Of a stretch of 64,000 nucleotides of DNA, positions 10,008 to 56,479 are shown piece by piece. A program made the position numbers and the translations under genes. Below the pieces are notes generated by a model, which did not search any database, had not been told where the DNA came from, and saw only the letters and a program-made list of their open reading frames with translations. Position 1 is the first letter of the stretch. Every line of letters starts with the position of its first letter. Source of the DNA: Bacteroidales bacterium (GTDB lineage: Bacteria; Bacteroidota; Bacteroidia; Bacteroidales; UBA4417). The stretch is from NCBI GenBank assembly GCA_038237165.1, contig JBBRYZ010000001.1, positions 30,199-94,198 on the forward strand. The letters run 5' to 3'.

Positions 10008-10023
10008 TGAAAGGAAAACGATT

Positions 10024-10788: not shown

Positions 10789-10872
10789 CTATGAAGCAAA
10801 TATGAGAAAGAGTTTTCTCACCCAATTGACTTATTAAAACCCAGCATAAAAATAACAAGAAAGGAATCAATC

Positions 10873-13257: not shown

Positions 13258-13296
13258 TTCCGTCGTATCTTATTTAAAACAATTAAAATCAGTATA

Positions 13297-13725: not shown

Positions 13726-13864
13726 TACTTTGTAATCAGGAGTGATTAAACATAGCATTTCTTAAGTTTAAAAAAATAAAAAATGATTCAAATAAAAGTT
13801 GTAACAAATAAGAACACTGAAAAAGCAAAATCAACTCTGAATTTTAAAAGTAAAGACCCGCCTC

Positions 13865-14086: not shown

Positions 14087-14113
14087 ACAATCAAAAGTAA
14101 ATAAACATACAAA

Positions 14114-16167: not shown

Positions 16168-16288
16168 TAGATATGATCGGTAATCACTAACCCATACCTG
16201 TTGCAGGCTGGGGAAAAGATAGTATAGAAACTAAAGTATCTGCAACAAAATTGCAGGGCTTTAACCATTAAACAGAAAATAATAACTC

Positions 16289-33935: not shown

Positions 33936-34664
33936 TCACAGTGTAATGAAATCCTTAATCCAACCCGAGGCAGGATTTGCTTTAATAAATTCAGGCTCGG
34001 CGAATTGTTCTATTTTCCCTTCGTTCATTATCGCTATATGCGTGCCAAGAGTAAAAGCCTCGTGTAAATCATGCGTAACCATTATAAAGGTAAGACCCAA
34101 TTCACTATGCATTTGTTTGATTTCATTTTGCAGGTTTCGGCGCGTAATGTTATCAAGTGCACCAAACGGTTCGTCCATCAGCACAATTTTCGGGTTGGCG
34201 GCCAAAGCCCTTGCTACGCCGACGCGCTGCTGTTGCCCTCCGCTTAGCTGATCAGGATAATTGTCGAGTTGTTGCTCATCAAATCCCATCATTGTAGCCA
34301 GCTCGGATACCCGCTGATTTTGTGCCTCTTTTTGATTCTCCGAAATACTCAGAACAAATTCCATATTTTGCTTTACCGAAAGGTGCGGAAAAAGGCCGCC
34401 TTGCTGTATTACGTAACCTATATTCCGCCGGAGCTGTATTTTATCCCAATGCCGGATGTCAGTTCCCATTACTTTTACTTGTCCTGAATCAAAATCGGTC
34501 ATGCCATTGATCAGTCGCAGCAAAGTTGTTTTGCCGCAACCGCTTGGACCGATGATTGTGATAAAAGCGCCTTCCGGAATAGTTAACGAAACAGAACGCA
34601 GTACCGGGTTTCCGGCCTGGTACGATTTTGTTACGCCTGATATTTCGATGATCGGATTAACCAT
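33936..34664 (-). CDS. ABC transporter ATP-binding protein, OpuC/EgtV-like (quaternary amine family)
   Basis: Walker A GPSGCGKTT, signature LSGGQQQR and Walker B LMDEPFGALD. Adjacent to the fused permease-SBP gene. Confidence 0.85.
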   Translation of the reverse strand: MVNPIIEISGVTKSYQAGNPVLRSVSLTIPEGAFITIIGPSGCGKTTLLRLINGMTDFDSGQVKVMGTDIRHWDKIQLRRNIGYVIQQGGLFPHLSVKQNMEFVLSISENQKEAQNQRVSELATMMGFDEQQLDNYPDQLSGGQQQRVGVARALAANPKIVLMDEPFGALDNITRRNLQNEIKQMHSELGLTFIMVTHDLHEAFTLGTHIAIMNEGKIEQFAEPEFIKANPASGWIKDFITL

Positions 34665-34673
34665 TTTGCATTT

Positions 34674-36212
34674 TTAATTCAGTAAGTTATTTGACTTTAA
34701 AAACGAAGCGGCTACTTCCTCAGGTGTTTTATTGGCTATCTCCACTTCATAATTTAGTTCCAACATCTTTGCATCATCAATTGTGCCGTTCAAACGACTG
34801 AGCAAATCAACCAGTTCAGGATAGTGCAATAGTATTTCATTCCTCACTACAATGCCTGCCTGGTATGCCGGGAAGAAATTCTTATCGTCGCGAAGCACAC
34901 GCAACTTCATTTGCCGGATACGCGAATCGGTTGAAAATGCATTAATAACATCCACAGTGTGGTTTTCGAGAGCCTGGAATTTCAGGTTCACATCAAGTTC
35001 AACTTTGTTTTTAAAATTGAAAGGATACACTGCCGAAAGTCCTTTAAAGCCATCTTCGCGTTCGTAAAAATCAAATTCAGCGCCAAATATAAACTGATTA
35101 CTTTTTGATGCCAGGTCCGAAAATGTTTTGATGTTTTCCTTGTTGGCTATGTCTTCGGGCAAAGCCAGCGTAAAGGTGTTGTTGAAACCAAAACGGCAGG
35201 CCCAGCTGAGTCCGAATTTTTCAGTATATGCCGTTTTTAACTCTGAATATAAGCTGTCGGGATTGCGGATTTGTGGTTTCTTCAGTACAAACAACCATGC
35301 GGTGCCGGTATATTCGGGATAAATATCAATTTCGCCCGACAATAACGCCGGTTGAATATTGGAAGTGCCCCCACCGATTCCAAACATTCGTTTTACAGGT
35401 ATATCCGTATTCTTTTCAATCATTTGCGAAATAATTTCACCCAGGATATACTGTTCGGCTGTTGGTTTTGAAGCAACAACAATTGTTCTTTTGGTGGTAA
35501 CAGCTGATTTTGACAGAATGGTGAAACCAATTGCCAGTGTTACTATTGCCAAACCGGCATAGGCAAGCCAGCGACGGTATCTGGATGAATGATGTTTGCT
35601 GTTTTTTAATGACTTCTCGAAAAATCCGATTGTAAGATCGGTAACTAGTGCCAGCAAAGCCACGGAAATTGAGCCTGCAAGAATAAGTGAGGAATTGTTG
35701 GTGTTAATACCCCTGTAAATTGCCTGACCCAAACCACCGGCACCAATAAAGGATGCAAGTCCGGCAAGAGCAATGGTCATAACAACCATAGTGCGGAACC
35801 CGCTCAGGATAGTTGGAAAAGCAAGAGGCCAGCGAATCCTTAGGAATATCTGCATTGGAGTAGCACCCATGCCTTTTGCAGCATCCAACAAACGCGGGTC
35901 CACTTCAATTAACCCGGTATAGGTATTCCGGATCATAGGAAGCAGGCCGTAAATAACAAGAACCACCAGTGCATTTAAAAAACCTATTCCTATTAAAGGG
36001 ATGAAGAGGCCAAACATGGCTATCGAAGGAATGGTATAGAGAAAATTTACCACTCCCAATACCAGGTTCCGGATTCGATTATACCGGACCAGCGCAATAC
36101 CCGAACTTACTCCAATAACAACAATTATCAATATGGCTGTAAGCGACAGCACAATATGCTGGAGGAGCAGTTCAAACAAATAATCCTTTCGCTGGAGTAA
36201 AAATGACCACAT
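34674..36212 (-). CDS. ABC transporter permease fused to substrate-binding domain, OpuB/OpuC/EgtU-like
   Basis: 512-aa ORF. The N-terminal ~210 aa form a BPD-type permease (EAA loop LDAAKGMGATPMQIF). The C-terminal ~290 aa form a glycine-betaine/choline-type SBP (IYPEYTGTAW). Confidence 0.8.
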   Translation of the reverse strand: MWSFLLQRKDYLFELLLQHIVLSLTAILIIVVIGVSSGIALVRYNRIRNLVLGVVNFLYTIPSIAMFGLFIPLIGIGFLNALVVLVIYGLLPMIRNTYTGLIEVDPRLLDAAKGMGATPMQIFLRIRWPLAFPTILSGFRTMVVMTIALAGLASFIGAGGLGQAIYRGINTNNSSLILAGSISVALLALVTDLTIGFFEKSLKNSKHHSSRYRRWLAYAGLAIVTLAIGFTILSKSAVTTKRTIVVASKPTAEQYILGEIISQMIEKNTDIPVKRMFGIGGGTSNIQPALLSGEIDIYPEYTGTAWLFVLKKPQIRNPDSLYSELKTAYTEKFGLSWACRFGFNNTFTLALPEDIANKENIKTFSDLASKSNQFIFGAEFDFYEREDGFKGLSAVYPFNFKNKVELDVNLKFQALENHTVDVINAFSTDSRIRQMKLRVLRDDKNFFPAYQAGIVVRNEILLHYPELVDLLSRLNGTIDDAKMLELNYEVEIANKTPEEVAASFLKSNNLLN

Positions 36213-36232
36213 ACAGAATATCCTGATTTAAA

Positions 36233-37198
36233 CTATCTTTCTTTCACCCAAAGCGAATCTGTAAAATAATTCCGGCTATCGGAAAAATGTTGTTCTACCC
36301 CGAATCCATTGCTTGTCGCTAATGTTTCAATCTTTTTCAAATCAAATTTACGCGAAAGTTCCATATAAACTGTTTCCCATTGGTTAAAGCGGAAATTTTT
36401 TGCCAGGGATTCAATATGCACAGTCTGATCTTTTGTTGAAACCAAAAAGCTTTTAACCGCGCCTGTTTGAGGATTGTAATCTATATGATGTTTAAAATTG
36501 CTGATGTCAAAATCGGCACCCAGTTCCCTGTTCAGGCGGATAAGATGATTGAGGTTAAATCGCTGGGTGTGGCCATGTGGATCATCATAAGCTTTCAAAA
36601 TTACATCAGGCGATTTTTTGAGGTCGAAACCAATCATAACTTTATCGCCTTTGTGTGCAAATTCGGAAAGCTGGCTTAAAAACAAATTCAATTCTTCATC
36701 CGGGAAATTGCCAATATTGGAACCCAGGAATAAAATTACTTTCCGTAGTCCGGAATAACCGTTAAGTTGTTTCATAACCCGGAAAAAATCGCCGGTCTGG
36801 GCATTCACTTTTAGTGAAGGGATTTCCTTTGCAAGGCTTTCAACCAGTTCGTTGTTGGCTTTCGGGCTTATATCGATAGGTATATATTTGAGGCCTGAAG
36901 ATCGGCTAATCATCGCATTCAGCAATATTTTCGTTTTCAATCCATCGCCCGAACCCAGTTCAATTACCTCGAAGCCTGAAGTACCTTTTATAAATGCATC
37001 AATAATCTGCTCTTTACGGGTTGAAAATATTTCATATTCGCAATTGGTGAGATAATATTCAGGCATGTTCATAATGTCCTGGAAAATGCTGCTGCCGATA
37101 TCATCGTAAAAATATTTCGACAATAGAAATTTTGGATTGGATGACAGACCGCTCAATGTATCGGTAGCCAGTTCGGAAAGAATTGTTAGTTGTTCCAT
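36233..37198 (-). CDS. eanA: L-histidine N-alpha-methyltransferase (EgtD/EanA family; hercynine synthase)
   Basis: 321-aa ORF with KYFYDDIGSSIFQDIMNMPEYYLTNCE, IELGSGDG and FLGSNIGNF, typical of EgtD-family methyltransferases. Confidence 0.85.
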   Translation of the reverse strand: MEQLTILSELATDTLSGLSSNPKFLLSKYFYDDIGSSIFQDIMNMPEYYLTNCEYEIFSTRKEQIIDAFIKGTSGFEVIELGSGDGLKTKILLNAMISRSSGLKYIPIDISPKANNELVESLAKEIPSLKVNAQTGDFFRVMKQLNGYSGLRKVILFLGSNIGNFPDEELNLFLSQLSEFAHKGDKVMIGFDLKKSPDVILKAYDDPHGHTQRFNLNHLIRLNRELGADFDISNFKHHIDYNPQTGAVKSFLVSTKDQTVHIESLAKNFRFNQWETVYMELSRKFDLKKIETLATSNGFGVEQHFSDSRNYFTDSLWVKER

Positions 37199-37202
37199 GG
37201 TT

Positions 37203-38510
37203 TTACTTTTCTACTTTGTAATGTTCCGGTATGCCTGTTTCATAAGGATTGCCAGGATCGTTGCTCCATTCGAACCAACCGCCGTCGTAAACTGAAACTT
37301 TGGGCCAGCCCATCAGCCAGGCGTTGAACCAAGCTTCACTGCCACGCCAACCGGTACCACAATAGAAAGCTAAATGCTTGTCGGGCGTGATACCGTTTTT
37401 TATCCAGGTGTCGGCTATCTCGTGAAACTCGCGTGTGGTGTTATCCACATTGCGGTAGTTTTCCATGTGATAAGCGTCGCTTCCGCAATCGGCAAAAACA
37501 GCACCTGGAATTCGTCCTTTTGCTTTGATGTAATTGTACCCGCTTACCTCGCCAATATATTCAGGCCAGCTTCGTACACAAACAAGTTCTGCATTATTCG
37601 CTTTCAATATTTCTTTGGCTTCGGGCGTATCAACTGCAAGTTCAGGATGAGCCGGAATTACAGCGCCGAAACTATCCACAGGCCTCTTTGGTTCATCGGC
37701 ATAATCTGTTTCAAATCCGTCATCCAGCCACGATTGAAAACCACCGTTAAGAATTCTGACATCTTTCACCCCGGCATACATCATGATAAATGCATTGCGG
37801 ATGGCCCCGATATCGCCGGCTGCACTGCCCGGAAATTCATCGGCATTATCAGGATGCATAAATTTACCATACAGCACAACGGTAGTGTCAGCGGTGATGC
37901 CATGATCTGTTAGGGCTTTCCTAAGTTCTTCCGGACTTCGCCGGTTCCAGGTTTCGGGTGCTTCGAGAGCCAGCGTATCCATGTCGATAGCCCCTGGAAT
38001 ATGGCCACTCAGGTAAGCATCGCGGTTGCGATAATGGGCATGTATAACCACGAATTTATTATTGCTGTAATTTTGAGGTTCACCACCTTTAATCAACGAA
38101 TTTACCCATTCAGCAGAAACAAGATGTTGAAACCGTTCCAGTTTTTGCATGGGTAAATCCGGATTATTAGTCCATTCAGTGGCGAAATCATTGTAACTGA
38201 AAACCTTGTTGTATCCCGAAGCGATAAACCTCGATGCTACTTTTTCCGTTTCCTCCTGCCGGTATCCGTAAACTACAATTGTATGTTCCGGTAATAGTTG
38301 CTTTTGCCTCACAACTTCTATCCAGTCGATATATTTCGTCCATTTTTCAGGAAGGCTGCGTGCGCCGGTAATATGTCCTCCGCTAGCTTCATTTTGAAGT
38401 GGCCAGCCATTGTAGGCTTCAACAGGCCGGACATCAACGATTTGAACATTGGATTCTGCAAGCAAAGCCTCTAATTCGGAGGTGGAAATTGATTGAACGG
38501 TGTTTTTCAA
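37203..38510 (-). CDS. eanB: Multi-rhodanese sulfurtransferase, EanB-like (anaerobic ergothioneine synthase)
   Basis: 435-aa ORF with several rhodanese modules and a C-terminal active-site loop YCGTGWRGSE. It lies 4 bp upstream of the EgtD-like gene, the arrangement that defines the EanA/EanB pathway. Confidence 0.7.
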   Translation of the reverse strand: MKNTVQSISTSELEALLAESNVQIVDVRPVEAYNGWPLQNEASGGHITGARSLPEKWTKYIDWIEVVRQKQLLPEHTIVVYGYRQEETEKVASRFIASGYNKVFSYNDFATEWTNNPDLPMQKLERFQHLVSAEWVNSLIKGGEPQNYSNNKFVVIHAHYRNRDAYLSGHIPGAIDMDTLALEAPETWNRRSPEELRKALTDHGITADTTVVLYGKFMHPDNADEFPGSAAGDIGAIRNAFIMMYAGVKDVRILNGGFQSWLDDGFETDYADEPKRPVDSFGAVIPAHPELAVDTPEAKEILKANNAELVCVRSWPEYIGEVSGYNYIKAKGRIPGAVFADCGSDAYHMENYRNVDNTTREFHEIADTWIKNGITPDKHLAFYCGTGWRGSEAWFNAWLMGWPKVSVYDGGWFEWSNDPGNPYETGIPEHYKVEK

Positions 38511-46255: not shown

Positions 46256-47008
46256 CTATTTTTTCTTTCTCGTCAGATCAAGCAATCCATTTATAATGGT
46301 CAAAGGATGCGTGGGGTTACCCGGAATATAAAGATCCACGTGATAGTTATCCAGGAAACTGCGATTCAGAGCCGAGCTTCCTGCAAAAATACCTCCGCTT
46401 ATGGCATCCGTTCCTACCAGTACAATAATTTTTGGTTCAGGAATAGCATCATAACAAATCTGAAGCGGTTCGGCCATGCTTTCAGTAATCGGGCCGGTAA
46501 TAACAATCCCGTCAGCATGACGCGGAGAAGCTACAAACTCAATTCCGAAACGCCCCATATCGAACTGTACATTGTTGGCGGCTCCCAGTTCCCACTCACA
46601 ACTATTGTCGCCACCGGCTGAAACCTGGCGCAACTTCAATGAGCGACCAAACAGGCTGTGAATTTCTTTTCTCACTTTTGCGGGGTTAACGGTTATCGGA
46701 TTTTCATCTCCTTCTTTAATTATAAGGCTTTCACGCTCGTTGACTGATATCTTATAGTCGGTTGTAAATTGAATTTTTTCAGGAAACCGCAAAGCACATT
46801 CGCCGCAAAAGGTACATTTACCCAAGTCTATGCTTACCGGATTTATAGAAATCGCGTTAACAGGGCAAATATCCAGCAACTCTTTTTCATCCACTTTTAC
46901 AGAAGTAATCAAAGGCCTGCCCCTGAAAATCCCGGGAACTTTGGCTGTAGTTACATCAGGAATAAACTGTTGGCCTTGATGGTAGAGGATTTTGAGGTTA
47001 TTGTACAT
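46256..47008 (-). CDS. NuoB/HycG-like small subunit with N-terminal ferredoxin-like domain; cluster ligands degenerate
   Basis: The C-terminal part (ASPRHADGIVITGP...EPKIIVLVGTDAISGG...IPGNPTHP) aligns to the NuoB/HycG pattern, but only one of the four canonical Cys positions remains. The N-terminal region has C-P plus CTFCGEC. Confidence 0.75.
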   Translation of the reverse strand: MYNNLKILYHQGQQFIPDVTTAKVPGIFRGRPLITSVKVDEKELLDICPVNAISINPVSIDLGKCTFCGECALRFPEKIQFTTDYKISVNERESLIIKEGDENPITVNPAKVRKEIHSLFGRSLKLRQVSAGGDNSCEWELGAANNVQFDMGRFGIEFVASPRHADGIVITGPITESMAEPLQICYDAIPEPKIIVLVGTDAISGGIFAGSSALNRSFLDNYHVDLYIPGNPTHPLTIINGLLDLTRKKK

Positions 47009-47043
47009 GGGTGGGTTAGTTATAAGTTAATGGTCATTCTATT

Positions 47044-47223
47044 GTTTCAGAGTTTCAATGTTTCATTGCGCTTCGCGCGTTTCAGGTTCCAAGGGCCAAG
47101 TTTAAATTCATAGTCATGTAGTTGTTTGGTCATCCGGTTTTCGATCTAGAGTTCTTTGCAATTCTGAAACATGAAACCTGAAACTATCCAATCCATAACC
47201 CATAGAACCTAACCCCCAATCCC
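47044..47223. repeat. Period-9 repeat element with inverted arms (array B), intercistronic
   Basis: Left arm gtttcagag tttcaatgt ttcattgcg cttcgcgcg tttcaggtt (47044-47088). Right arm ctgaaacat gaaacctga aac... (from 47164), followed by ccaatccat aacccatag... up to 47223. Confidence 0.75.
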
Positions 47224-48729
47224 TTACAAATCATGCCCGCTATACGACAAGTTAAAACTCTTGTTGCAAATCGGAAAATCTGAAATTTCATTGTTCCTTA
47301 CCGAAAGTGCAAGCGCCAGCCAGTTGTGGAACGAAGGATCTTTTATTTTATAGATTATCAATTCACCGTTTGCACCGGTAATGGCACAATGGCAGATTTC
47401 ACCGCGCCATCCTTCTACCAGCGAAAGTGTAAATAATCCGGCTCGCGGACTGTTCAATACAGGTTTTTCTTTTGATGTTTCAGCCAGAGGAATTTCAGCC
47501 ATCAGGGCACGCAGGTATTTCATGGATTGAAAAACTTCTTTTTTTCGAATCTGAACCCTGGAATACACATCGCCATGATGCTTTATTACAGGCTCGTGAT
47601 TGAGTTCAGCATACAAGCAATGCGGATGTGATAAGCGGGTATCTCTCATCACGCCCGAAGCCTTGGCGGCCATCCCGACCGCACCAATCTTCGCAGCATC
47701 TTCAAAAGAGACCACCCCGGTGCGTTCGAAACGCGACAATGCGCTTGGCAGATTGGAAAGTTCCTTGTTCATCTCGGTAAAGTCAGGTTCAAAGGTGTCG
47801 AGAACCTGCAAAAGCCTGTCAGCCAGAGCCTGGGAAAATGGAAACTTATTCTCCATTGGTCTGATCAACCCTTTCGACAAGCGGTTACCGCACCATTCCT
47901 GCAGAAAATTAACGATGGGTGTGCGAAGTCTGCCAAAAACGGAACTGCCAAGCTGGTAAGCGATATCGGTGCAAACCGCACTCAGATCGCCGGTGTGTAT
48001 GGCTATCCTTTCAAGTTCAAGCGCAACAGTGCGGGAAAAGTTGATATCGCGCGTTGTTTCGAAGCCACACAAGCTTTCCCACACATGGGCAAAAGCCGTT
48101 GATTGACCAACAGCAGTATCACCAGTGATACCTTCGGCTAAGGTAGCCAACTGGTTAAGATGTTTCTTTTCCAGGAATAATTTTTCAATTCCTCTATGCT
48201 GATAGCCCAGTTGAATTTCGAGATGCAGAATCTGTTCGCCATTACATATAAACCTGAAATGACCCGGTTCAATAATTCCGGCATGTATTGGCCCCACTCC
48301 TACTTCGTGAAGTTCCTCACTGTCGATCGAATAAAACGGATAATTGGCAATAGTCTGACTTTTATCAAAACGATCATAAGAATACCGCACCGGTTTCAGC
48401 CAGGGATGATCCGAATATTTTATCCCAAAGTTCTCATGGATTTCGCGCTCAAACTTTTCGAAACAGAGATTCTTTGCCGTAAAAGAAGGATGCTCCTCTT
48501 TATCATCAATCAAACAAGAAGAAACATAAATCAGATGATCAGCATCATCGGCTATACAGCAGATCAACTTAGTTGAATCACCTTCCTGATACCCGAAATA
48601 ATTCACACAATGCCTTTCGGGCTTCTCAGCCACCATTCCCGTATTCAGTATAAGGAAAGCGCTATACGAAATCTCAGGAATATCTGAAACGGGGACGGAC
48701 TGATTGTTTTTTATCGATAGATAGTGCAT
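47224..48729 (-). CDS. Group-4 [NiFe]-hydrogenase-like large subunit fused to NuoC-like domain (HycE/HyfG/NuoCD-like), lacking NiFe cysteines
   Basis: GPIHAGIIEPGHFRF and LGYQHRGIEK are typical of HycE/NuoD. Where the N-terminal CxxC would sit the sequence is GITGDTAVGQS, and the C-terminus is SFNLSYSGHDL in place of DPCxxCxxR. The ORF is open to 48807, but that extension reads through repeat array C, so the ATG at 48729 is preferred. Confidence 0.8.
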   Translation of the reverse strand: MHYLSIKNNQSVPVSDIPEISYSAFLILNTGMVAEKPERHCVNYFGYQEGDSTKLICCIADDADHLIYVSSCLIDDKEEHPSFTAKNLCFEKFEREIHENFGIKYSDHPWLKPVRYSYDRFDKSQTIANYPFYSIDSEELHEVGVGPIHAGIIEPGHFRFICNGEQILHLEIQLGYQHRGIEKLFLEKKHLNQLATLAEGITGDTAVGQSTAFAHVWESLCGFETTRDINFSRTVALELERIAIHTGDLSAVCTDIAYQLGSSVFGRLRTPIVNFLQEWCGNRLSKGLIRPMENKFPFSQALADRLLQVLDTFEPDFTEMNKELSNLPSALSRFERTGVVSFEDAAKIGAVGMAAKASGVMRDTRLSHPHCLYAELNHEPVIKHHGDVYSRVQIRKKEVFQSMKYLRALMAEIPLAETSKEKPVLNSPRAGLFTLSLVEGWRGEICHCAITGANGELIIYKIKDPSFHNWLALALSVRNNEISDFPICNKSFNLSYSGHDL

Positions 48730-48758
48730 GGAAATTTTAATGGTTAATAAATTGTTTC

Positions 48759-48967
48759 GGGTTTGAAGAGTTTGAAGAGTTTCTATTGTCAAATAGTGGT
48801 CATACAATTGTCATACGGTTGTCATACGGTTGCAGCTCTGACATTGAAAATCTTAAACTCTTCAAACATTTCAAACTCTTCAAACATTTCAAACCCTTCA
48901 AACATTTCAAACTCTTCAAACTCTTCAAACATTTCAAACTCTTCAAACATTTCGAACTCTTCAACTT
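48759..48967. repeat. Period-9 repeat element with inverted arms (array C), intercistronic
   Basis: Left arm gggtttgaagagtttgaagagtttc (48759-48783). The spacer contains 3x an 11-mer gtcatac(a/g)(a/g)tt (48799-48831). The right arm has ~12 nonamers aaac(t/a)(c/t)ttc (48855-48967), complementary to the left arm. Confidence 0.9.
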
Positions 48968-50394
48968 CACATCGGCAACAAAGCCACACTCTCCTTAAGC
49001 ATTTGCACAAAAATTGCAGGCGGATTTAATCCAAGATAAACTGCCGTTGCAAGTAAAATAAACTGCGAAAGTGATTCCCAAGGACTTATTTTTACCACCT
49101 GCGAATCATCAAATCCAACTGCCGGAACAAAAAGCACTTTGAACATATTTTTTCCAAAAGCCCATATTATCATGGTTAACAGTAAAAGAACTGCAATCAA
49201 CAGGAGAAATTGTCTTGCATCGAAAATGGATTTAAAGATCAGAAACTCACTCACAAACAATCCGGAGGGAGGCATAGCTGTGGCGCTCATAAATCCCAGA
49301 AGCAATACCATGGCGCCTGTCGGGTTGTATTTAAAGTAATTACCGATGTGGTAAATGCTCTTGTTTTGAAAAACAGTGTAAAGTTGGTTAAACTGGAAGA
49401 ACAGGCTGGATTTCACAAATGCATGCAGTATAATATGCAGAATGGCAGCGTAATAGCCAATCCCGCCGGCAGCCACGCCAAGCATAACAATACCCATATG
49501 CTCTATACTGGAATAGGCAAACATACGCTTGATATTTTTTACTTTCAGCATATACACCGTGGACACAAAAATAGAAAGGAATGCTGCCGAACCGATTACC
49601 AGTTGAGCCCAATGCAGAACCGGAGTATTTGCCAGAACAATGTAGAAGCGAAAAATACCGACAAAGCCAAGGTTCATTAATATTGTGGAAAACAATGCGC
49701 CAGCAGGTGCAGGAGCCTTATCCTTGGCATCAATGCCGGCAGTAAACATGGGAACCAATCCGAGTTTGGCGGTAAATCCTGTAAAAATGAACAGGAAAGC
49801 CATCCTTAGCCAGACCGGGTTAAGCTCAGCTCTGCGGGCCAAAAGGTTACTGAATGAAAGGTCATCGGAACCCGCGTGTTGTAGTGAAAGACTCAGAAAA
49901 AGAATCCCTATAAAAATAAAAGTAATGCTGATGGCACAGATGAAAACATATTTCCAGGTACCTTCGAGCGCCAGTTTATTGCGGTGATGATAAATAAGGG
50001 CAGAAGCGCTAAGAGTGGTAATTTCGGTAAAAATCCATGTCACGGCAATATGGTTGGAGAGGTAACCCGCGCTGATAGCCATGATCAGCAATACTATTGC
50101 CGTTAGGTAAATGGCCCTTGTGTGCGGGCTTTCATGATGGTTTTCAATATAAATGTAACTGTGGATCATAGCAGGCACGGCTATAATACTAGCGGTTATC
50201 AGCAATATGACACCAAGAGAGTCGAAAGTAAAATAGATAAGTTCCGTACTTCGGTAATGCAGGCAGGCGTATATGGTTATGAGCCATTGCAGCACCAGGA
50301 ACAAGCCTGCCAGCGCATATACAAGCAATTTGTTCCTGCTGAAAAACAGGATTATGGCAATGGCAATTGAGCCCAACAGATAAATTCCAATCAT
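48967..50394 (-). CDS. NuoN/NuoM/HyfF-like proton-conducting antiporter-type subunit
   Basis: 475-aa polytopic ORF with Mrp/NuoN-type motifs (the FTGFTAKLGLVPMF region and SSIEHMG). Confidence 0.8.
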   Translation of the reverse strand: MIGIYLLGSIAIAIILFFSRNKLLVYALAGLFLVLQWLITIYACLHYRSTELIYFTFDSLGVILLITASIIAVPAMIHSYIYIENHHESPHTRAIYLTAIVLLIMAISAGYLSNHIAVTWIFTEITTLSASALIYHHRNKLALEGTWKYVFICAISITFIFIGILFLSLSLQHAGSDDLSFSNLLARRAELNPVWLRMAFLFIFTGFTAKLGLVPMFTAGIDAKDKAPAPAGALFSTILMNLGFVGIFRFYIVLANTPVLHWAQLVIGSAAFLSIFVSTVYMLKVKNIKRMFAYSSIEHMGIVMLGVAAGGIGYYAAILHIILHAFVKSSLFFQFNQLYTVFQNKSIYHIGNYFKYNPTGAMVLLLGFMSATAMPPSGLFVSEFLIFKSIFDARQFLLLIAVLLLLTMIIWAFGKNMFKVLFVPAVGFDDSQVVKISPWESLSQFILLATAVYLGLNPPAIFVQMLKESVALLPM

Positions 50395-50412
50395 CAGTTT
50401 CCTTTTTCCCGG

Positions 50413-51045
50413 TTAATAATCTTTTAAGTTACTCAGCTGATCCACATCCACATCTTTAAACACATCACCTATCTTATTCAGGAATATTCCAAGGATAAGC
50501 ACACTGGCGAATATATCGAGCATTATTCCCAGGTTGACAAGCATTGGCATTTCGTTGCCTATAGCCAGTGAAAGCACGAAAACGCCGTTCTCAATCACCA
50601 TATAACCCATAACGTGAGTGATAATCTTTCGCCGTGTTGCAATCAGATAAAGCCCAAAAAACAAGGTTGACAGCGCCACTACAAAAAATATCTTATCGAG
50701 GTGGTCATCCTTTATGGTATTGGATATCAGTATGGTGATTACAACGATGAATGTGGTGATTACAAGCGATACAAAATTCGGAAGGAACGGCTCTGCTTCG
50801 CGGGTAATGTTATTCCGCTTAAGCAGATAACCAAGAAAAATTGGTACCGCCAGCGATTTAAACACAATGGTTTCGAGAAGGATAAGCACCAGGTTGAGAG
50901 TGTTGATTTCACTGAGCTGAAGAAAGACCACGAAAAACAGAATAACTCCCTGGAGTGCCAGCACTTTTATATAGGTCATCATCCGATTGGCAATGGCCAT
51001 ATAAAAAAGAGTTATTATGAAAGTGATTAAAAGAACATGTATCAT
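50413..51045 (-). CDS. HyfE/NuoK-like membrane subunit
   Basis: 210-aa hydrophobic ORF, in the position and of the size of hydrogenase-4 component E. Confidence 0.65.
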   Translation of the reverse strand: MIHVLLITFIITLFYMAIANRMMTYIKVLALQGVILFFVVFLQLSEINTLNLVLILLETIVFKSLAVPIFLGYLLKRNNITREAEPFLPNFVSLVITTFIVVITILISNTIKDDHLDKIFFVVALSTLFFGLYLIATRRKIITHVMGYMVIENGVFVLSLAIGNEMPMLVNLGIMLDIFASVLILGIFLNKIGDVFKDVDVDQLSNLKDY

Positions 51046-51069
51046 TGTATCAAACGGTTTTTAAACATT

Positions 51070-51975
51070 TTACATGAATTTCTGAAGTATCAGCAATACG
51101 CCGAAAAAGATCAGCAGGCTCACGGAGGTGAGCGCCACTATAAACTGCGGATTGTGGCTCATACGGAACCTCGCCATAAAGGATTCGATTATTCCGATAG
51201 CCACTGCCATCGAGAACTGTATCGCAAAAAACGAAGGAATTGCATATTGGATTGGTATTACGCCTATAAAAAGATTTACAATCAAAGCGCCGTAAATAGC
51301 AAACTTAAGGTAACCTGCGGTGAATATGAGCCCAAGGTCGAAACCACTGTTATCCAGAATCATAACCTCATGGATCATAGTAAGCTCGAGATGAGTTTTT
51401 GGATCATCAATCGGCATGCGGCTGCTCTCGATCATGGCAATCATAAGCAATACAAATGTGGCTAAAGCCGCCAGCGCATAACTTATCTGGGAACCGATAT
51501 GGAGCGCTGCAAATATTTCCTGGAACGAGGTATGCCCCGATAGCAATGCCAGCGAACCCATCAGAATAAAAAACGCAGGCTCGGCAAACATGGAATATAA
51601 AGCTTCGCGGCTGGCACCCATTCCTTCGAAACTGCTGCCGGTATCCATGGCTGCAATAATCGAGAAAAACTTACCAAGTGCCAAAACATAAGCGAAAAAG
51701 ATAAAGTCGCCGTTAAAACTCAGCACACCACGCGATTCGCCGAAAGGCACTACCAGCATAGCCATCACTACCGACGCAAAGTAAATGGTAGGCGCAATCT
51801 GAAACACAAAACTGGTGGTTTCGCTGTACACTACGCCTTTGCGGAACAAACGCACCACATCGCGCACAGGCTGCAGTATTCCCGGGCCTTTACGACCCGA
51901 TGCCAGGCTTTTGGTACGGATAATTATCCCCGTAAAAAAGATGGCAGCTATAACAATCAACAGTACACTCAGCAT
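51070..51975 (-). CDS. NuoH/HyfC/HycD-like membrane subunit
   Basis: 301-aa ORF. An N-terminal R.KGPG..QP..D..K motif (GRKGPGILQPVRDVVRLFRKG) and later FAEPAFF are typical of the NuoH/HycD family. Confidence 0.8.
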   Translation of the reverse strand: MLSVLLIVIAAIFFTGIIIRTKSLASGRKGPGILQPVRDVVRLFRKGVVYSETTSFVFQIAPTIYFASVVMAMLVVPFGESRGVLSFNGDFIFFAYVLALGKFFSIIAAMDTGSSFEGMGASREALYSMFAEPAFFILMGSLALLSGHTSFQEIFAALHIGSQISYALAALATFVLLMIAMIESSRMPIDDPKTHLELTMIHEVMILDNSGFDLGLIFTAGYLKFAIYGALIVNLFIGVIPIQYAIPSFFAIQFSMAVAIGIIESFMARFRMSHNPQFIVALTSVSLLIFFGVLLILQKFM

Positions 51976-51976
51976 G

Positions 51977-54004
51977 TTATAATTGGTTTAAAAATTCGAT
52001 GAATGATTGTATGTTCTGATAGATAATCGGTATACTCATAACGGCAAGGATAAAAAGTACGCCGTACAGGATATACATCTGAAGTTTCCCGTTGTTCAGA
52101 AATGTAAAGCGCCCCATAAAATGCTTATCGAGCTTCAGAGGACTGTCAATCAGCCATTTTTCAAGTTTATCGTAAGGATGTGTATGGTAATTAGCTCCGG
52201 AAGGAAATATACCTTTAACCTCCTCTTCATGTTTCCCGATTAAAAGAAATGTTCCAAATAATTTGCTGTATGTCCTAACAAAGGAACCGGCAGTATATTG
52301 TATTTTGGATGTTGGCGCAATATAGCCGCAACCCCAGGTTGGACCTGTTTCAATTTTGCGATGACTTAGAGCGAATTTTCTAACAGCAAACATACCGGCA
52401 ACAAGTAAAATCATCATCCAGGCAGCCCAACTAATAGGTTGCAGCGCACTGAAAGCATTAAGTTGAACCTCATTTAAAGGCAAAGTAAGGGTGCCTGTAA
52501 GCAAACTGACCGGTTTTCCTAAAAGGTTAATAAATGCCATAGGGAAAAGCCCGATCAGCATAATAATTGCTGTCAGCAGATACATGGGCAGCAGTTGCAG
52601 GAAAGGAACTTCCCTGCACGATTCGGGCAAAGGAGACCTTTCAGTCCCAAGAAAAACTACACCAAAAGCTTTTGTGAAGCAAAGCATAGCCAATCCTCCT
52701 ATCATCACCAGCGCCATGATGGCAAAAATTGCGGCTATCAGCGAAACAAGTGTAGTATCACTCAGCCAGTTGTAGAAACCGGTGTATATGATGAATTCTG
52801 AAATAAAGCCGTTAAACGGGGGGATTCCGCAGATAGCAATAGCTGCGATAAGAAACAGCAACGCAGTCTGTGGCATTTTTTTGATTATCCCTCCAAGTTT
52901 TTCGATATCCATGGTATGCGTGGACTGGTAAACATTGCCGGCTGCATAAAACAACAGCGATTTGAAAAGCGAATGATTCAGCGTGTGCAACAAGGCGCCG
53001 GCAAATCCCAGCGTTGCCAGCACATGGTTCCCTGTACCAATCCCAACACATCCAAGTCCAATACCCATTCCGATAATACCAATATTTTCGATGCTGTGAT
53101 AGGCAAGCAGTTTTTTCAGGTTATGCTGAACAATAGCCAGCATTACACCATACAGTCCGGAAATGGTTGAAATCAGCAATATAATGTAACCCACTGTTAT
53201 AAAATCAGTTTTAATAAGGAGCAACATCCGCAGTATTCCAAAGATTCCTATTTTGATAATGACTCCCGACATAATTCCCGACACATGCGATGGTGAGGCA
53301 GGGTGCGCGTATGGCAGCCAGGTATGAAATGGAACAAAACCGGCTTTTATAGCAAAGCCAATAAAAAAGAAGAGGAAAAGCATTAATGATGCTGAAGCGG
53401 GAATCGATTCAGTATATGCTTTGATTGCCATGAAATCATAACTTCCTGTTTTCGATGCTACCCAGATAAAACCTATCATCAGGAATAATATGGAAAAATG
53501 AGCCTGTATCAGAAAATTGATGCCAGCTTTAATGGTTGAAATATGCTCGTGCTCGAAAATAATAACTATAAAGGACGAAAGCGCCATTATTTCCCAGGCA
53601 ATTAGAAATGCAAAACTATTCTGTATCACACATATACTTATCATTGCTGAATACTGCAACAGAAATGAAATGCTGTGAAGTGAAAGATTATTCTTCTGCT
53701 CTCGGTAGGCTTTCATGTAAAACAATCCATAAAAACCTCCTGTAACAAAAACCAGGTTAATGATCAGTATAAACCATCCCGACAAGGAATCGATGCGGAT
53801 TGGAATAGGACCGGTGATATAACTCCCTGGTAAGATAAAACTTACCGTATCGCCAAGCAGGCTATGCACGGCAAAATATCCGGAAATCAATGCATTGATC
53901 AATAGCAAGGCAAAAGTCAATATCCCTTTCGCATTCACTTTTAAAAAAGGAATGAGAAGCATACCTGCAAAAGGTATAAGGACAAATGCAATCACCAGGT
54001 TCAT
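51977..54004 (-). CDS. NuoL/HyfB-like antiporter-type subunit (copy 2)
   Basis: 675-aa polytopic ORF with WLPYAHPASPSHVSG, HSIENIG and the C-terminal GPTWGCGY extension seen in HyfB/HycC-type subunits. Confidence 0.8.
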   Translation of the reverse strand: MNLVIAFVLIPFAGMLLIPFLKVNAKGILTFALLLINALISGYFAVHSLLGDTVSFILPGSYITGPIPIRIDSLSGWFILIINLVFVTGGFYGLFYMKAYREQKNNLSLHSISFLLQYSAMISICVIQNSFAFLIAWEIMALSSFIVIIFEHEHISTIKAGINFLIQAHFSILFLMIGFIWVASKTGSYDFMAIKAYTESIPASASLMLFLFFFIGFAIKAGFVPFHTWLPYAHPASPSHVSGIMSGVIIKIGIFGILRMLLLIKTDFITVGYIILLISTISGLYGVMLAIVQHNLKKLLAYHSIENIGIIGMGIGLGCVGIGTGNHVLATLGFAGALLHTLNHSLFKSLLFYAAGNVYQSTHTMDIEKLGGIIKKMPQTALLFLIAAIAICGIPPFNGFISEFIIYTGFYNWLSDTTLVSLIAAIFAIMALVMIGGLAMLCFTKAFGVVFLGTERSPLPESCREVPFLQLLPMYLLTAIIMLIGLFPMAFINLLGKPVSLLTGTLTLPLNEVQLNAFSALQPISWAAWMMILLVAGMFAVRKFALSHRKIETGPTWGCGYIAPTSKIQYTAGSFVRTYSKLFGTFLLIGKHEEEVKGIFPSGANYHTHPYDKLEKWLIDSPLKLDKHFMGRFTFLNNGKLQMYILYGVLFILAVMSIPIIYQNIQSFIEFLNQL

Positions 54005-55992
54005 GATAAAATATTAAAAACGGTGAGGATAAACATGGCCAGGATAAAAACGATGCCGTATAAAACGTACGACTGTATTTTGCCATTTGTAACAAAACTG
54101 AAATAGTTGGCCGAATAGTTCAGTCTGTGCGTTATTGGGTTAATCAGTTTGCGTTCAATAATATCATGGTAATGTGATACATAAGAACGTTTTTCGGGAA
54201 AGATTTCCCCGGGTTTCAACTCTACATAATGCTTACTTTCTATCAGCATGAAGTTAAGTATTTTCCCAAGAGGTTTTGAAAATGATTTGGCAGTGTATTG
54301 TATCCGGCTTGTTCCTGCCACATAACCGCATCCCCAGGTAGGACCGTAACTTTCAACCCGATTCTTCATTACTTTTGATCTGACGAGCCAGGTCAGTGCT
54401 ATGATTCCGATAAGCAACAGCGAATACAAACTGACGTTAGTAACAGTTACAGCATATCCTGCAACAATGTCTGAGTTTGAACCAAGCGGATTTATATTTG
54501 TAAGCGCATTCCCAATAATTCCAAGATAAAACTGAGGAATAAAAGCCACGCTGAGCATAATTACAATAATCACATATTGAGGCACAAGCATTATTTTCGA
54601 AACCTCGTGAGGCTTATGTTGTAATTCAGTACGGGGCTGACCGAGAAAAATGGTTCCGAATGTTTTTGTAAAAGTAAGTACCGATAAACCACCAATAACA
54701 CTTAATCCGGCCAACGAAAGAATAAACAGCAAAATCTGGCTTAGGCTGTTGGCATGAATCCCTTCTATCAGACCATTATAAATAATAAATTCCGAAATAA
54801 AACCATTAAACGGTGGAAGCCCGCCTATAGCAACGGCTCCGATAAGGAATATGGCTGCTGTCCGGGGCATTGATTTTATCAGGCCACCCAGATGCTCCAT
54901 ATCGCGGGTATGGCATTGCTGGTAAACTGATCCCGCCGAATAAAACAGCAAGGATTTGAAAAGTGAATGATTAAGTACATGAAGCAACGCGCCGCCAAAT
55001 CCCAGGAAGTACATCACCGGCGAACCGTTTCCGATTCCTATCAGCCCGATTCCAATCCCTATTCCGATGATCCCGATATTTTCGATAGTACAATAGGCCA
55101 GCATCTTTTTAAAATCGCGGTGAACCGAGGCATTGAGTATGCCATATATTCCGGTAAGTACTGAAAGTGAAAGAATTATCTCACCCAGCAAAACATAATC
55201 TTTACTCAGAAATGTGATCATCCTGAATATCCCGTAAATACCCAGTTTTACAATTACGCCCGACATTACGCCCGAAATATGCGAAGGCGCCGCCGGGTGT
55301 GCATGTGGCAGCCAGCTGTGCAGCGGAATGAATCCTGCCTTCAATCCGAAACCGGCGAAAAACACAAGAAACAGCCAGATATTGTTATTTGATTGAAAAA
55401 AGCTGCGGATGGCTTCGAAACTGAATGAGCCGGTTGAGCTGTAAACCCATACAAAACCAATGGTCAGGAAAACAACGCTGATATGCATTTGCACCAGATA
55501 GTTAATTCCGGCTTTCAGGTTTTGTGTGTTATGTGAATCAAATATCACCAACAGCATCGAGGTTAGCGACATCACTTCCCAGGCAAGCAGAAAAGCGAAA
55601 CCGTTTTGCAACATGCAAACCCAAACCATAGCCAGATGAAACATAATGAAAAGTGCCCAGTGGAGAGTAAGCTTAGGTGCCGGATTCGTGTAAGCTCTGA
55701 GGTAACCGGTACCATAAAATACGCCTGTGAGTGAGGTGAAGTTGATAATCAGGATAAACCATGCCGATAACCCATCGATCCTGACAATGGTATCGCCCAT
55801 AAAATTACCGGTGAATATCGAAAATTCAACAACCTGTCCGCTCAGCGCGGGGAAAGCCAGCCAGGATGATATCAGTGCGTTAATCAGAACCGTGAGCGCA
55901 GCTGTATATGCTTTATAGGTCGAAGGGATAAAATAGAGCACAACTATGGCAAGCAGTGTAACTATCCAACTCACATTAACCATCTCAATCAT
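54001..55992 (-). CDS. NuoL/HyfB-like antiporter-type subunit (copy 1)
   Basis: 663-aa paralog of the downstream gene (WLPHAHPAAPSHISG, CTIENIG, GPTWGCGY). It overlaps that gene by 4 bp. Confidence 0.8.
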   Translation of the reverse strand: MIEMVNVSWIVTLLAIVVLYFIPSTYKAYTAALTVLINALISSWLAFPALSGQVVEFSIFTGNFMGDTIVRIDGLSAWFILIINFTSLTGVFYGTGYLRAYTNPAPKLTLHWALFIMFHLAMVWVCMLQNGFAFLLAWEVMSLTSMLLVIFDSHNTQNLKAGINYLVQMHISVVFLTIGFVWVYSSTGSFSFEAIRSFFQSNNNIWLFLVFFAGFGLKAGFIPLHSWLPHAHPAAPSHISGVMSGVIVKLGIYGIFRMITFLSKDYVLLGEIILSLSVLTGIYGILNASVHRDFKKMLAYCTIENIGIIGIGIGIGLIGIGNGSPVMYFLGFGGALLHVLNHSLFKSLLFYSAGSVYQQCHTRDMEHLGGLIKSMPRTAAIFLIGAVAIGGLPPFNGFISEFIIYNGLIEGIHANSLSQILLFILSLAGLSVIGGLSVLTFTKTFGTIFLGQPRTELQHKPHEVSKIMLVPQYVIIVIMLSVAFIPQFYLGIIGNALTNINPLGSNSDIVAGYAVTVTNVSLYSLLLIGIIALTWLVRSKVMKNRVESYGPTWGCGYVAGTSRIQYTAKSFSKPLGKILNFMLIESKHYVELKPGEIFPEKRSYVSHYHDIIERKLINPITHRLNYSANYFSFVTNGKIQSYVLYGIVFILAMFILTVFNILS

Positions 55993-56479
55993 AACAAGAA
56001 TTCTATGATCTTTTTTTGAAAGATGGCAAATTTAGGAAAAATATGCGGTTTGTTGCATCCTTAAGTTCCATTGATAGCTTAGGACAGTTGAAATGGTTTA
56101 GAAAAAATATTTTCCATGACACTCATTAACAGCCAACTAACATATACATTGCCGGCAATATGATAAATGCAACAGAAGTAAAAAATATTGATTCCAGATA
56201 CTGTATTCACATATCCGGTTAGTGTATGCATACTGGCAGGTTGTCTGATACCAACAATAAGAAAATTTGAAAATATGATGCATTATTATAGACTATTCAC
56301 TTTCAACTAACTAAAAATAGCCTGCTGTATATAAACCTATTACAAAGTCCATTTTTCTTCACTTCCAAGCTTTATCTTTACTCCGGTTAGTTCCAATTAG
56401 CGCGATAATTACCGTGTAAGTCTATTCACTTTTCATGCGAATCACGAATCCAAATCAAGCTTTATCTATCGGGGGAATT

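Follow-up and report, generated by a model that had tools for sequence, protein, structure and literature searches.

What drives a complex-I-like membrane complex whose catalytic subunit has lost the ligands of its metal centre? A stretch of 64,000 nucleotides (nt) from a Bacteroidales bacterium (contig JBBRYZ010000001.1, forward-strand positions 30,199 to 94,198; this whole stretch is called the window, and coordinates are counted from its first letter) raises this question with a seven-gene operon, here named ehr. An initial annotation, made from the letters of the DNA alone, had assigned the operon to the Ehr (energy-converting-hydrogenase-related) class and had asked what could drive such a complex, or whether it works as an Mrp-like cation antiporter. 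We found that the predicted complex can be neither a [NiFe] hydrogenase nor a conventional ferredoxin- or NADH-driven complex-I-type oxidoreductase, and that it very probably neither produces nor consumes hydrogen.

The Ehr class was first named, as the 'Ech-hydrogenase-related complex', in Geobacter sulfurreducens (GSU0739–0745, comprising EhrA-1, EhrC, EhrL, EhrS and others; PMC7894505) and was generalised by Marreiros et al. 2013, in the form in which that work is cited in PMC6349859, PMC7894505 and PMC4758237. The class is described, with its function stated as unknown, in several later papers (PMC6349859, PMC10284858, PMC4378227, PMC7894505, PMC10432482, PMC7304191), and HydDB filters it out as non-hydrogenase (PMC5037454).

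Results

A seven-gene operon related to hydrogenase 4 and complex I

Seven co-oriented open reading frames (ORFs) on the minus strand fill positions 46256–55992, exactly as in the initial annotation, whose description of a Hyf/complex-I-like seven-gene operon with these subunits is borne out by the ORF coordinates and by the Pfam and NCBIfam matches. Read 5′ to 3′, the order is HyfB-like, HyfB-like, NuoH/HyfC-like, HyfE-like, HyfF-like, NuoC+D/HycE-like (EhrL) and NuoB-like (EhrS), with the following products (lengths in amino acids, aa):

54001–55992, minus strand: EhrA-1, HyfB/NuoL-like antiporter-type subunit, 663 aa (PF00361 at 2e-55)
51977–54004, minus strand: EhrA-2, HyfB-like antiporter-type subunit, 675 aa (PF00361 at 7e-55; HyfB model 498 bits)
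51070–51975, minus strand: EhrB, NuoH/HyfC-like subunit, 301 aa (PF00146 at 1e-36)
50413–51045, minus strand: EhrC, HyfE-like subunit with a NuoK-like C-terminal half, 210 aa (NCBIfam hydrogenase 4 membrane subunit, 1e-19)
48967–50394, minus strand: EhrD, HyfF/NuoN-like antiporter-type subunit, 475 aa (PF00361 at 4e-41; best NCBIfam models HyfF-type)
47224–48729, minus strand: EhrL, NuoC+NuoD/HycE-like large subunit, 501 aa (PF00346 at 4.5e-30, and PF00329)
46256–47008, minus strand: EhrS, HycF/HyfH/NuoI-like half-ferredoxin (residues ~1–100) joined to a HycG/HyfI/NuoB-like domain (~115–250), 250 aa (PF01058 at 4e-20, and weak Fer4 matches)

In Pfam terms, Proton_antipo_M was found three times in the operon (best NCBIfam models HyfB, HyfB and HyfF), EhrB carries NADHdh, EhrL combines Complex1_30kDa with Complex1_49kDa, EhrS carries Oxidored_q6, and residues 120–208 of EhrC match PF00420. 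The two NuoL/HyfB-like subunits of 663 and 675 aa described before were both recovered and are paralogues with 46% identity. All NCBIfam matches of the ehr products lie well below the curated cut-offs of their models, those to NuoB, NuoD and NuoH far under them, and the best model for EhrA-1, hydrogenase 4 subunit B, scored 493 bits against a cut-off of 667; therefore the named Hyf, Hyc and Nuo subunits have no orthologue among these products. The ehrL frame is open to a TTG at 48807 (47224–48807), and the ATG at 48729, 78 nt downstream, was taken as the real start because the homologues are 498–501 aa long. This start goes beyond the initial annotation, as do the half-ferredoxin in EhrS with its one intact four-Cys site and the H2 claim made for Hyq, both treated below. 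The stop of ehrA-1 and the start of ehrA-2 overlap by 4 nt, followed by a 1-nt gap and then by spacers of 18–24 nt, and unusually long spacers precede ehrL and ehrS.

The former Ni-Fe site of the large subunit

The best solved relative of EhrL is E. coli HycE (7z0s_E; HMMER E = 4.5e-34). In the alignment HycE 'sdRvCgiCgfaHs' faces EhrL 'aeGiTgdTavgQs' and HycE 'slDPCySC' faces 'sfNLSySG', which places T202, T205, S495 and G498 (501-aa numbering) at the Ni-Fe cysteine positions and reproduces the replacement of all four ligands by T, T, S and G that had been read from the sequence before. The two segments, both checked by translation, are:

48103–48135, minus strand: EhrL residues 199–209, EGITGDTAVGQ, at the RxCGxCxxxH position
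47227–47265, minus strand: EhrL residues 489–501, NKSFNLSYSGHDL, at the DPCxxCxxH/R position and the C-terminus

E199, G203 and D204 are present in 80/80 clade members, and S495 and G498 are invariant in the clade and kept in 83/86 distant Ehr representatives. Residue 209 (48103–48105) is His in 79/80 clade members and in most of the wider family, and the Gln found here is unique to the window. Displaced CxxC pairs, which the initial annotation had named as the finding to look for against its reading, were ruled out by a table of Cys columns from 86 distant Ehr members aligned with 6 true hydrogenases: no other conserved Cys set was found among these sequences, C162 and C488 being ~50–60% conserved. 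EhrL ends 3 residues past the C-terminal motif, leaving no cleavable C-terminal extension, whereas E. coli HycE runs well beyond this point. The AlphaFold model of EhrL (pLDDT 96.3) had HycE as its best match among solved structures in Foldseek (TM-score 0.89), with no Ehr-type structure among the matches.

The most conserved stretches of EhrL are former active-site elements, namely the beta1–beta2 loop GPIHAGIIEPGHFRF, E199-x-I-x-G-D204-T, WRGE (R442), which is the counterpart of the hydrogenase PRGE motif, and the C-terminal NKSFNLSYxGHDL. Alignment to Aquifex NuoCD (7q5y_B) put I153 at the His of 'th' and G203 at the Tyr of 'drmdY', the two NuoD residues that ligate quinone in T. thermophilus Nqo4. 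Membership in the MBS/Mbx group was considered and rejected, as the similarity of EhrL to MbsL (6u8y_L) is weak (E = 2.7e-12).

A single four-cysteine cluster site in the small subunit

MbhJ and HycG are the best solved relatives of EhrS. Alignments to E. coli HyfH, NuoI, HyfI and NuoB revealed that the N-terminal ~100 residues are homologous to the N-terminal part of HyfH/HycF/NuoI, and we call EhrS a fusion because this HycF/NuoI-like part is present without a separate HycF/NuoI gene. The N-terminal HycF/NuoI-type loop and helix are retained; in formate hydrogenlyase (FHL) and complex I this conserved loop runs along the membrane surface (PMC9474812). The positions of the Fe-S ligands are:

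46796–46867, minus strand: C48(P)...C65xxC68xxC71, the sole complete four-Cys [4Fe-4S] site in the complex (checked by translation)
46598–46609, minus strand: D134-N-S-C137, the CxxC position of the proximal (N2-type) cluster (MbhJ 'gsCngC', EhrS 'ggDnsC')
46391–46414, minus strand: GTD201AISGG, third N2 ligand changed to Asp (MbhJ 'gaCptgg', EhrS 'gtDaisgg'; coordinates checked)
46304–46324, minus strand: PGN231PTHP, fourth N2 ligand changed to Asn (MbhJ 'pgCpp', EhrS 'pgNpt')

In ferredoxin motif 1 (CxxCxxCxxxCP) only the last Cys is left (C48-P), whereas motif 2 keeps the first three (C65, C68 and C71), its fourth position being Phe. Under the standard ligation rule for 2x[4Fe-4S] ferredoxins, one cluster retains its four ligands and the other has lost all four. 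C48, C65, C68 and C71 are present in 77–78 of 78 relatives. Of the two NuoI clusters (N6a and N6b), the retained one is probably that next to N2. The N2-type cluster has lost three of its four ligands, with only C137 left, and conservation at and near the site is high (D134 78/78, C137 74/78, D201 77/78, N231 77/78, H234 78/78). The peripheral arm of the clade is thus predicted to hold at most one [4Fe-4S] cluster, so that the phrase 'apparently cofactor-poor peripheral arm' of the initial annotation holds further than claimed, EhrS being also without three of the four proximal [4Fe-4S] ligands.

In FHL every hop of the electron relay is shorter than 14 Å (PMC9474812). With the N2-type cluster and one ferredoxin cluster lost, the relay is therefore interrupted on both sides of the remaining cluster, and no continuous path leads to the former active site. 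Another possibility considered was that D134, C137, D201, N231 and H234 form a mononuclear metal site of a new kind. These residues do not vary within the clade, but the pattern does not hold in its nearest outgroups (A at position 137 in locus L083; V, E and A in L091), and the site is unsupported as a family feature. The AlphaFold model of EhrS (pLDDT 62, with the ex-cluster loops below 50) is the basis of no argument here.

An intact membrane arm

The three antiporter-like subunits expected from the initial annotation are all present as PF00361 subunits with the canonical Glu of transmembrane helix 5 (TM5), Lys of TM7, His/Lys of TM8 and Glu of TM12. The residues are invariant in 53 relatives of EhrA-1 (TM5 E139, TM7 K218, K249, TM8 H338/H342/K346, TM12 E401), in 65 relatives of EhrA-2 (E138, K220, K251, H340/H344/K348, E403) and in 76 relatives of EhrD (E124, K210, H320/H324/K328, E383), and N241 of EhrD stands at a position where HyfF likewise has Asn. 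The TM12 Glu of all three subunits is NuoM-type. EhrB, the link between the two arms (E-channel), matches E. coli NuoH at R123 (R148), E132 (E157), D190 (D213), E197 (E220) and R269/R271 (R291/R293), all of them clade-invariant. The membrane carboxylates E152 and D177 of EhrC, which align with E159 and D184 of HyfE, are invariant, and so are the coupling loops, the beta1–beta2 loop of EhrL and the TM5–6 loop of EhrB. To judge from these residues, the membrane arm retains every canonical ion-translocation residue and looks functional.

Selection and distribution

Against the closest relative, dN/dS was 0.019 for EhrB, 0.018 for EhrC, 0.042 for EhrD, 0.075 for EhrL and 0.067 for EhrS, a comparison limited to these five genes as the contig of that relative is without both HyfB-like genes. 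Such values indicate strong purifying selection on these five subunits. For the two HyfB-like genes, dN/dS against more distant relatives was 0.055–0.081, with dS near saturation. Invariant positions make up 38–47% of EhrL, EhrS and EhrB, and EhrB, at 47%, is one of the two most conserved subunits.

EhrL relatives occur in at least 573 species-level genomes, and the best-matching carriers are mostly anaerobic Bacteroidales. The 80 best EhrL loci come nearly all from Bacteroidales metagenome-assembled genomes (MAGs), assigned to Prolixibacteraceae, Lentimicrobiaceae, Paludibacter, Draconibacterium and Salinivirgaceae. MAGs of Tangfeifania are also among the carriers. Counted over the retained loci whose contigs span the operon, the order B1-B2-C-E-F-L-S was found in every one, minor exceptions aside: in five the first HyfB-like gene did not pass the reporting filter, and in one the gene for the small subunit is found elsewhere, on the other strand. 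The cluster is not a chance arrangement, because the same order recurs in these loci from other genomes.

Extra membrane-arm genes were observed in a few loci. A Draconibacterium MAG carries a second B2-C-E-F set directly after ehrS (L066:12398-17395), a Paludibacter MAG has three HyfB-like genes, and another MAG has an inverted B2/C pair upstream (L042:726-6738 and L079:7-2821).

Assignment to the Ehr class and variation within it

A search of 1.8 billion cluster representatives returned 510 EhrL relatives at E < 1e-30, and 116 full-length representatives were examined. Ni-Fe cysteines are absent from 110 of the 116, and most of the Cys-less relatives share the replacement signature 'xGD[ST]' and 'KSFNLSY[CSA]GxDL'; the other six, with ~35% identity, carry true CGxC/CxxC motifs. 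The source names include Bacteroidota, Acidobacteriota, Gemmatimonadota, Nitrospirota, Cloacimonadota, and Beta- and Deltaproteobacteria. The initial annotation had called for a phylogeny. A neighbour-joining tree of 107 sequences, rough in that it has no bootstrap and no named Ehr reference sequences, groups EhrL with the Cys-less sequences and outside HycE/HyfG and NuoCD of E. coli; the Cys-less and the six Cys-bearing sequences form a clade of their own, and EhrL of the window is a derived tip of the Cys-less radiation. The earlier match to the Ehr class is supported by group-4 homology, by the lost Ni-Fe cysteines, by the shared Cys-less motifs and by NuoB-, NuoH-, HyfE- and antiporter-like neighbours without maturation genes. 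The operon very probably encodes an Ehr-class complex (Hyq-like branch of the group-4 hydrogenase/complex I superfamily) in a Bacteroidales-specific variant.

Small subunits from ten more distant Ehr loci were recovered and aligned. All four N2-type cysteines are present in 4 of them, three in 2, and one or none in 4. Combined with the ferredoxin motifs, the ligand sets across Ehr range from three clusters down to none:

Rhodoferax ferrireducens (L095): N2-type Cys 4/4; both ferredoxin motifs
L081: N2-type Cys 4/4; both ferredoxin motifs
Deltaproteobacterial MAG (L094): N2-type Cys 4/4; most ferredoxin ligands
L093: N2-type Cys 4/4; no ferredoxin domain
L084 and L085: N2-type Cys 3/4; both ferredoxin motifs
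Clade of the window: N2-type Cys 1/4; one ferredoxin cluster only
L083 and the Rikenellaceae version (L091): N2-type Cys 0/4; one ferredoxin cluster only
L086: N2-type Cys 0/4; no ferredoxin domain

As some other Ehr lineages keep the N2 ligands, the broken electron wire marks the clade of the window as a variant of Bacteroidales. No variant that combines loss of the N2 ligands, a fused single-cluster half-ferredoxin and a duplicated HyfB was described in the literature searched, which did not include the founding papers Coppi 2005 and Marreiros 2013.

Reduced forms were found in Bacteroidales as well: a six-gene version in Rikenellaceae, a two-gene HyfF-like + L version in Mucinivorans (L092:6538-9400), and an orphan EhrL homologue, 48% identical, that directly follows mutS and has neither membrane nor small subunit genes (L090:10001-11503). 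The forms in L090 and L092 may be functional minimal units or remnants. A 982-aa apparent fusion of HyfF-like and L subunits (P0446) fell into the cluster of P0141, which is of the Longimicrobiales Ehr type, and draws F subunits of 474 aa and L subunits of 506 aa into one 90% cluster; either the fusion is genuine, or it is an artefact of a frameshift or of gene calling where stop and start overlap.

Comparison with known systems

With other Ehr complexes the ehr complex shares the group-4-like Cys-less large subunit, the NuoB-, NuoH-, HyfE- and NuoL/M/N-like partners, the absence of maturation genes, and a 'GD[ST]' / 'NLSY.G.DL' signature common to hundreds of Cys-less sequences from many phyla. 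It differs in that the clade of the window has two HyfB-like genes whereas most distant loci have one. The comparison rests on lineages other than the Geobacter sequences themselves.

Hyq of Azorhizobium caulinodans (hyqRBCEFGI) is also Cys-less, and H2 recycling has been read from its genetics (PMC2650096, PMC3357923), the one function claimed for any Cys-less relative in the literature searched. The two systems have in common the structural order B-C-E-F-G-I, a NuoC::NuoD fusion without both CxxC motifs (HyqG, ~504 aa) and the absence of NuoEFG-type subunits. In contrast to EhrS, which has one of the four N2-type cysteines, HyqI has all four (PMC3357923). The role proposed for Hyq is that of an H2:quinone oxidoreductase controlled by NifA, with hyqR as regulator gene, whereas no regulator adjoins the ehr operon; ehr, moreover, has two B genes and a small subunit with a fused half-ferredoxin.

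The closest relatives of every ehr subunit among characterised and solved complexes belong to E. coli Hyf and Hyc (HyfB, HyfC, HyfE, HyfF, HycE/HyfG and HyfH+HyfI; 7Z0S, PMC9474812), and Hyf has the same three-antiporter-module membrane arm. The differences are that ehr lacks the Ni-Fe site and the proximal cluster and keeps only one of the two HycF-type clusters, that HyfH and HyfI are fused, that HyfA/HycB, FdhF, HycI and hyp are missing, and that a second HyfB-like subunit takes the place of HyfD. Ehr lacks the features of group 4 [NiFe]-hydrogenases: the four Ni-Fe cysteines, the four-Cys proximal cluster, a C-terminal extension of the large subunit and, among the scanned window ORFs, hyp genes and the endopeptidase gene, with no conserved neighbour in the 80 loci.

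Mrp antiporters share the PF00361 subunits with their conserved Glu/Lys/His set, a NuoK-like small subunit and the proposed gradient-driven mode. They are without NuoH-, NuoB- and NuoD-like subunits and without a peripheral arm, whereas ehr is without MrpB/E/F/G and has no extra ORFs in its spacers; the resemblance is one of mechanism only, not of membership. Complex I and MBS/Mbx share the NuoH-type E-channel residues and the coupling loops, an L-shaped layout that we infer for ehr, and, in NuoD/MbsL, the absence of a Ni-Fe site. Unlike complex I, ehr has no quinone His/Tyr, no N2 cluster, no NADH module, no separate two-cluster NuoI and no NuoA/J/K set.

Genomic context

The operon is flanked by unrelated genes, a divergent ThiF-family gene, and DUF1697 and Omp85 genes on the other strand. 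A Pfam scan covered nearly all window ORFs of at least 110 aa outside the operon and two smaller ones. Among the scanned ORFs of the 64-kb window, no hyp, formate dehydrogenase (FDH), NuoEFG or hycI-like gene was found, with small hypA/hypC genes on unscanned short ORFs not excluded; to this extent the earlier statement that the window has no hyp, FDH or NuoE/F/G genes holds. Clustering of 955 flanking ORFs from the 80 loci yielded no conserved partner gene, no real flanking cluster being present in more than 8 of the 80. The larger recurrent clusters, when inspected, were antisense artefacts inside the operon.

In 12 more distant loci, several with short contigs, no FDH, NuoEF or hyp gene lies beside the operon. 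An unrelated Ech-like cluster lies 3 kb from the Ehr operon in one Acidobacteria contig. L086 has a CBS protein, a CitMHS-type transporter and an ATP synthase operon as neighbours, L091 has chromate transporters, and L085 has an ArsR-type regulator and, two genes downstream, a beta-carbonic anhydrase (L085:13096-13782) as a single case; the rest have unrelated or housekeeping neighbours, or contigs too short to show any. Two of the distant loci, unrelated to each other, have a PTS-EIIA_2 (EIIA-Ntr-type) gene directly upstream in the same orientation (L081:4432-5118 and L094:4346-4987); proteobacterial regulators of this type have been linked with K+ homeostasis. Such suggestive neighbours of the distant loci are ion-related or regulatory.

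Non-coding features of the operon are the following:

48855–48964, no strand: 9-nt tandem repeat, ~12 copies, in the ehrD–ehrL spacer (Tandem Repeats Finder score 129–143)
47009–47223, no strand: 215-nt non-coding ehrL–ehrS spacer with short 7–8-nt repeats (no credible ORF)
55993–56434, minus strand: upstream intergenic region, shared with the divergent ThiF-family gene (sequence read)

The repeat units of the ehrD–ehrL spacer are GAAGAGTTT/GAAATGTTT, followed by 11-nt and 22-nt repeats. In most relatives ehrD/ehrL and ehrL/ehrS nearly abut, and the closest relatives of the window also have gaps of 100–470 nt. Scans for sigma-70 promoters and terminators gave nothing above chance, and the window gave no match in Rfam and tRNA scans. 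A candidate Bacteroidetes-type −7 box, TAAATTTG, lies at 56027–56034; the promoter is presumed from the published Bacteroides consensus TAnnTTTG.

Elsewhere in the window, four adjacent genes at 33936–38510 (minus strand) encode a rhodanese-domain protein (435 aa), an EgtD-like histidine methyltransferase (PF10017), a fused permease/OpuAC-type binding protein and an ABC ATPase, a set that may stand for anaerobic ergothioneine synthesis of the EanB/EanA type beside an EgtUV-type transporter. At 25962–29476 (minus strand) an MmeI/Eco57I-type restriction-modification enzyme is apparently split over three ORFs (MmeI_hel, Eco57I+N6_Mtase and TaqI_C), with an IS200-type Y1 transposase-like match inside the middle one and a low G+C content (0.34–0.37). 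A fermentative/carbohydrate block at 8817–18180 (plus strand) holds acetate kinase, a PRC-barrel protein, phosphoketolase (XFP), class-I aldolase, phosphomannose isomerase, a phosphomannomutase-like protein and a GH130 mannoside phosphorylase, after which come a P-type cation ATPase and PPK2.

Discussion

What, then, could drive the complex? We tentatively favour a redox-independent, gradient-driven cation/proton translocator, in which the peripheral arm gates the NuoH-type channel. It would then serve as an antiporter of the Mrp type or interconvert Na+ and H+ gradients, and the peripheral arm would be kept to cap and gate the NuoH-type E-channel on its cytoplasmic side. Residues that may form a protonatable or ion-binding gate are E154, D204, R442 and S495 of EhrL and D134 and D201 of EhrS, and the lone Fe-S cluster could be structural or could serve as a redox/O2 sensor. 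It is possible, and we say so guardedly, that as a gradient-driven ion translocator the device is driven or gated by a non-redox event, such as protonation or ion or ligand binding at the remodelled Ni-Fe/N2 pockets. An invariant membrane arm, an operon under selection and the absence of a linked redox partner gene in the loci examined would all be consistent with gradient-driven operation. The Fe-S content varies across Ehr from three clusters to none, which argues that the shared function needs no fixed electron wire.

Several points weigh against such a gradient-driven translocator. Its main weakness is that a simple antiporter such as Mrp needs no arm, yet the arm is as conserved as the membrane subunits. 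The most conserved parts of the arm are the former active-site loops, which hints at chemistry or ligand binding, and the invariance of the four cysteines of the remaining cluster also fits real electron transfer. The ancestral function was probably redox-linked, as full three-cluster chains persist in L081 and L095. Ehr subunits of Geobacter are more abundant on formate (PMC7894505), Cys-less Hyq has been reported to recycle H2 (PMC2650096, PMC3357923), and the AlphaFold model of EhrS is poor (pLDDT 62).

A rival reading is a redox-driven pump whose partner is encoded elsewhere, which we consider rather unlikely though worth taking seriously. Here the lone [4Fe-4S] cluster of EhrS would be fed with single electrons by reduced ferredoxin, flavodoxin or a docking dehydrogenase, and these electrons would pass to a substrate such as menaquinone or polysulfide in the vacated N2 pocket (D134, C137, D201, N231) or at the remodelled EhrL site. 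Invariance of the cluster cysteines in 77–78 of 78 relatives, of the coupling loops and of the second-sphere residues of hydrogenases (E154, and R442 of WRGE, the PRGE counterpart), as well as retention of C137 in 74/78 and the existence of related Ehr complexes with complete cluster chains, speak for the pump. So does the higher abundance of Geobacter Ehr on formate (PMC7894505), and MBS offers a precedent of Ni-free chemistry in which the proximal cluster region is the catalytic site (PMC7684303). However, the remaining cluster has no neighbour on either side, which makes a conventional relay impossible under the 14-Å rule (PMC9474812), and both NuoD quinone ligands are absent. No donor or acceptor gene is linked in the 80 close loci or in the distant loci with contigs beyond the operon, the closest relatives outside the clade (L083 and L091) are without C137, and some Ehr complexes (L086) have no Cys ligands at all.

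It seems improbable that the ion gradient is coupled to a non-redox reaction at the remodelled EhrL site, or that a small ligand bound there drives or gates translocation. Antiporter-type subunits are coupled to vectorial CO2 hydration in CupA/NDH-1 and DabAB, and a beta-carbonic anhydrase lies near one distant locus (L085); this neighbour, however, is a single case. The family-wide signature 'GD[ST]', 'NLSY.G.DL' is more conserved than the Fe-S ligands, which would suit a site of this kind, but EhrL offers no candidate catalytic metal site and no conserved His/Cys triad, and the conserved His is Gln in the window. L homologues that occur with a HyfF-like subunit only (Mucinivorans, L092) or alone (L090), in either case without an S subunit, and the apparent HyfF-like + L fusion P0446 can be counted in its favour; the reduced forms may nevertheless be decaying remnants, and no substrate is indicated by any evidence.

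Far less probable is a genuine hydrogenase in which the Ni-Fe centre is bound or replaced in another way, as proposed for the Hyq 'endo-hydrogenase'. Hyq has the same order hyqBCEFGI and a large subunit without either CxxC, and deletion of hyq impaired diazotrophic growth, which was interpreted as lost H2 recycling (PMC2650096, PMC3357923). Even so, a Ni-Fe site in HyqG is 'uncertain, if not unlikely' in the words of those who described Hyq. In EhrL all four Ni-Fe ligands are gone with no alternative conserved Cys set, the scanned window ORFs include no hyp or maturation protease gene, and EhrL has no cleavable extension. HyqI has four N2-type cysteines against one in EhrS; with these ligands lost, even the route proposed for Hyq (H2 to N2 cluster to quinone) therefore cannot run. 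A non-functional remnant of a hydrogenase-4 operon, to which the lost cofactor ligands, the long repeat-filled spacers before ehrL and ehrS and the unique H209Q might point, is scarcely credible against seven intact ORFs, a dN/dS of 0.02–0.08 (five genes), invariant functional residues, the presence of the operon in the retained spanning loci and EhrL relatives in at least 573 species-level genomes.

The Ehr class was already known; what appears to be new here is the EhrS fusion, the loss of the N2 ligands, the single remaining cluster and the restriction to a lineage. Public databases name such genes 'Ni,Fe-hydrogenase III large/small subunit', 'NADH dehydrogenase subunit' or 'hydrogenase', and metagenome surveys that count them as H2 or NADH metabolism are wrong for the clade of the window. 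The gradient of Fe-S ligands across Ehr represents a stepwise loss of cofactors from a hydrogenase-derived module and bears on models for the origin of complex I. The clade sharpens the Ehr question by setting a broken electron wire against invariant coupling loops, the E-channel and three antiporter modules: either redox input is not needed in this complex, or it enters by an unprecedented route. If redox-independent, gradient-driven translocation proves true, Ehr of Bacteroidales would be the first 'redox-dead' complex-I-type coupling device, and it would provide a natural experiment that parts conformational coupling from electron transfer.

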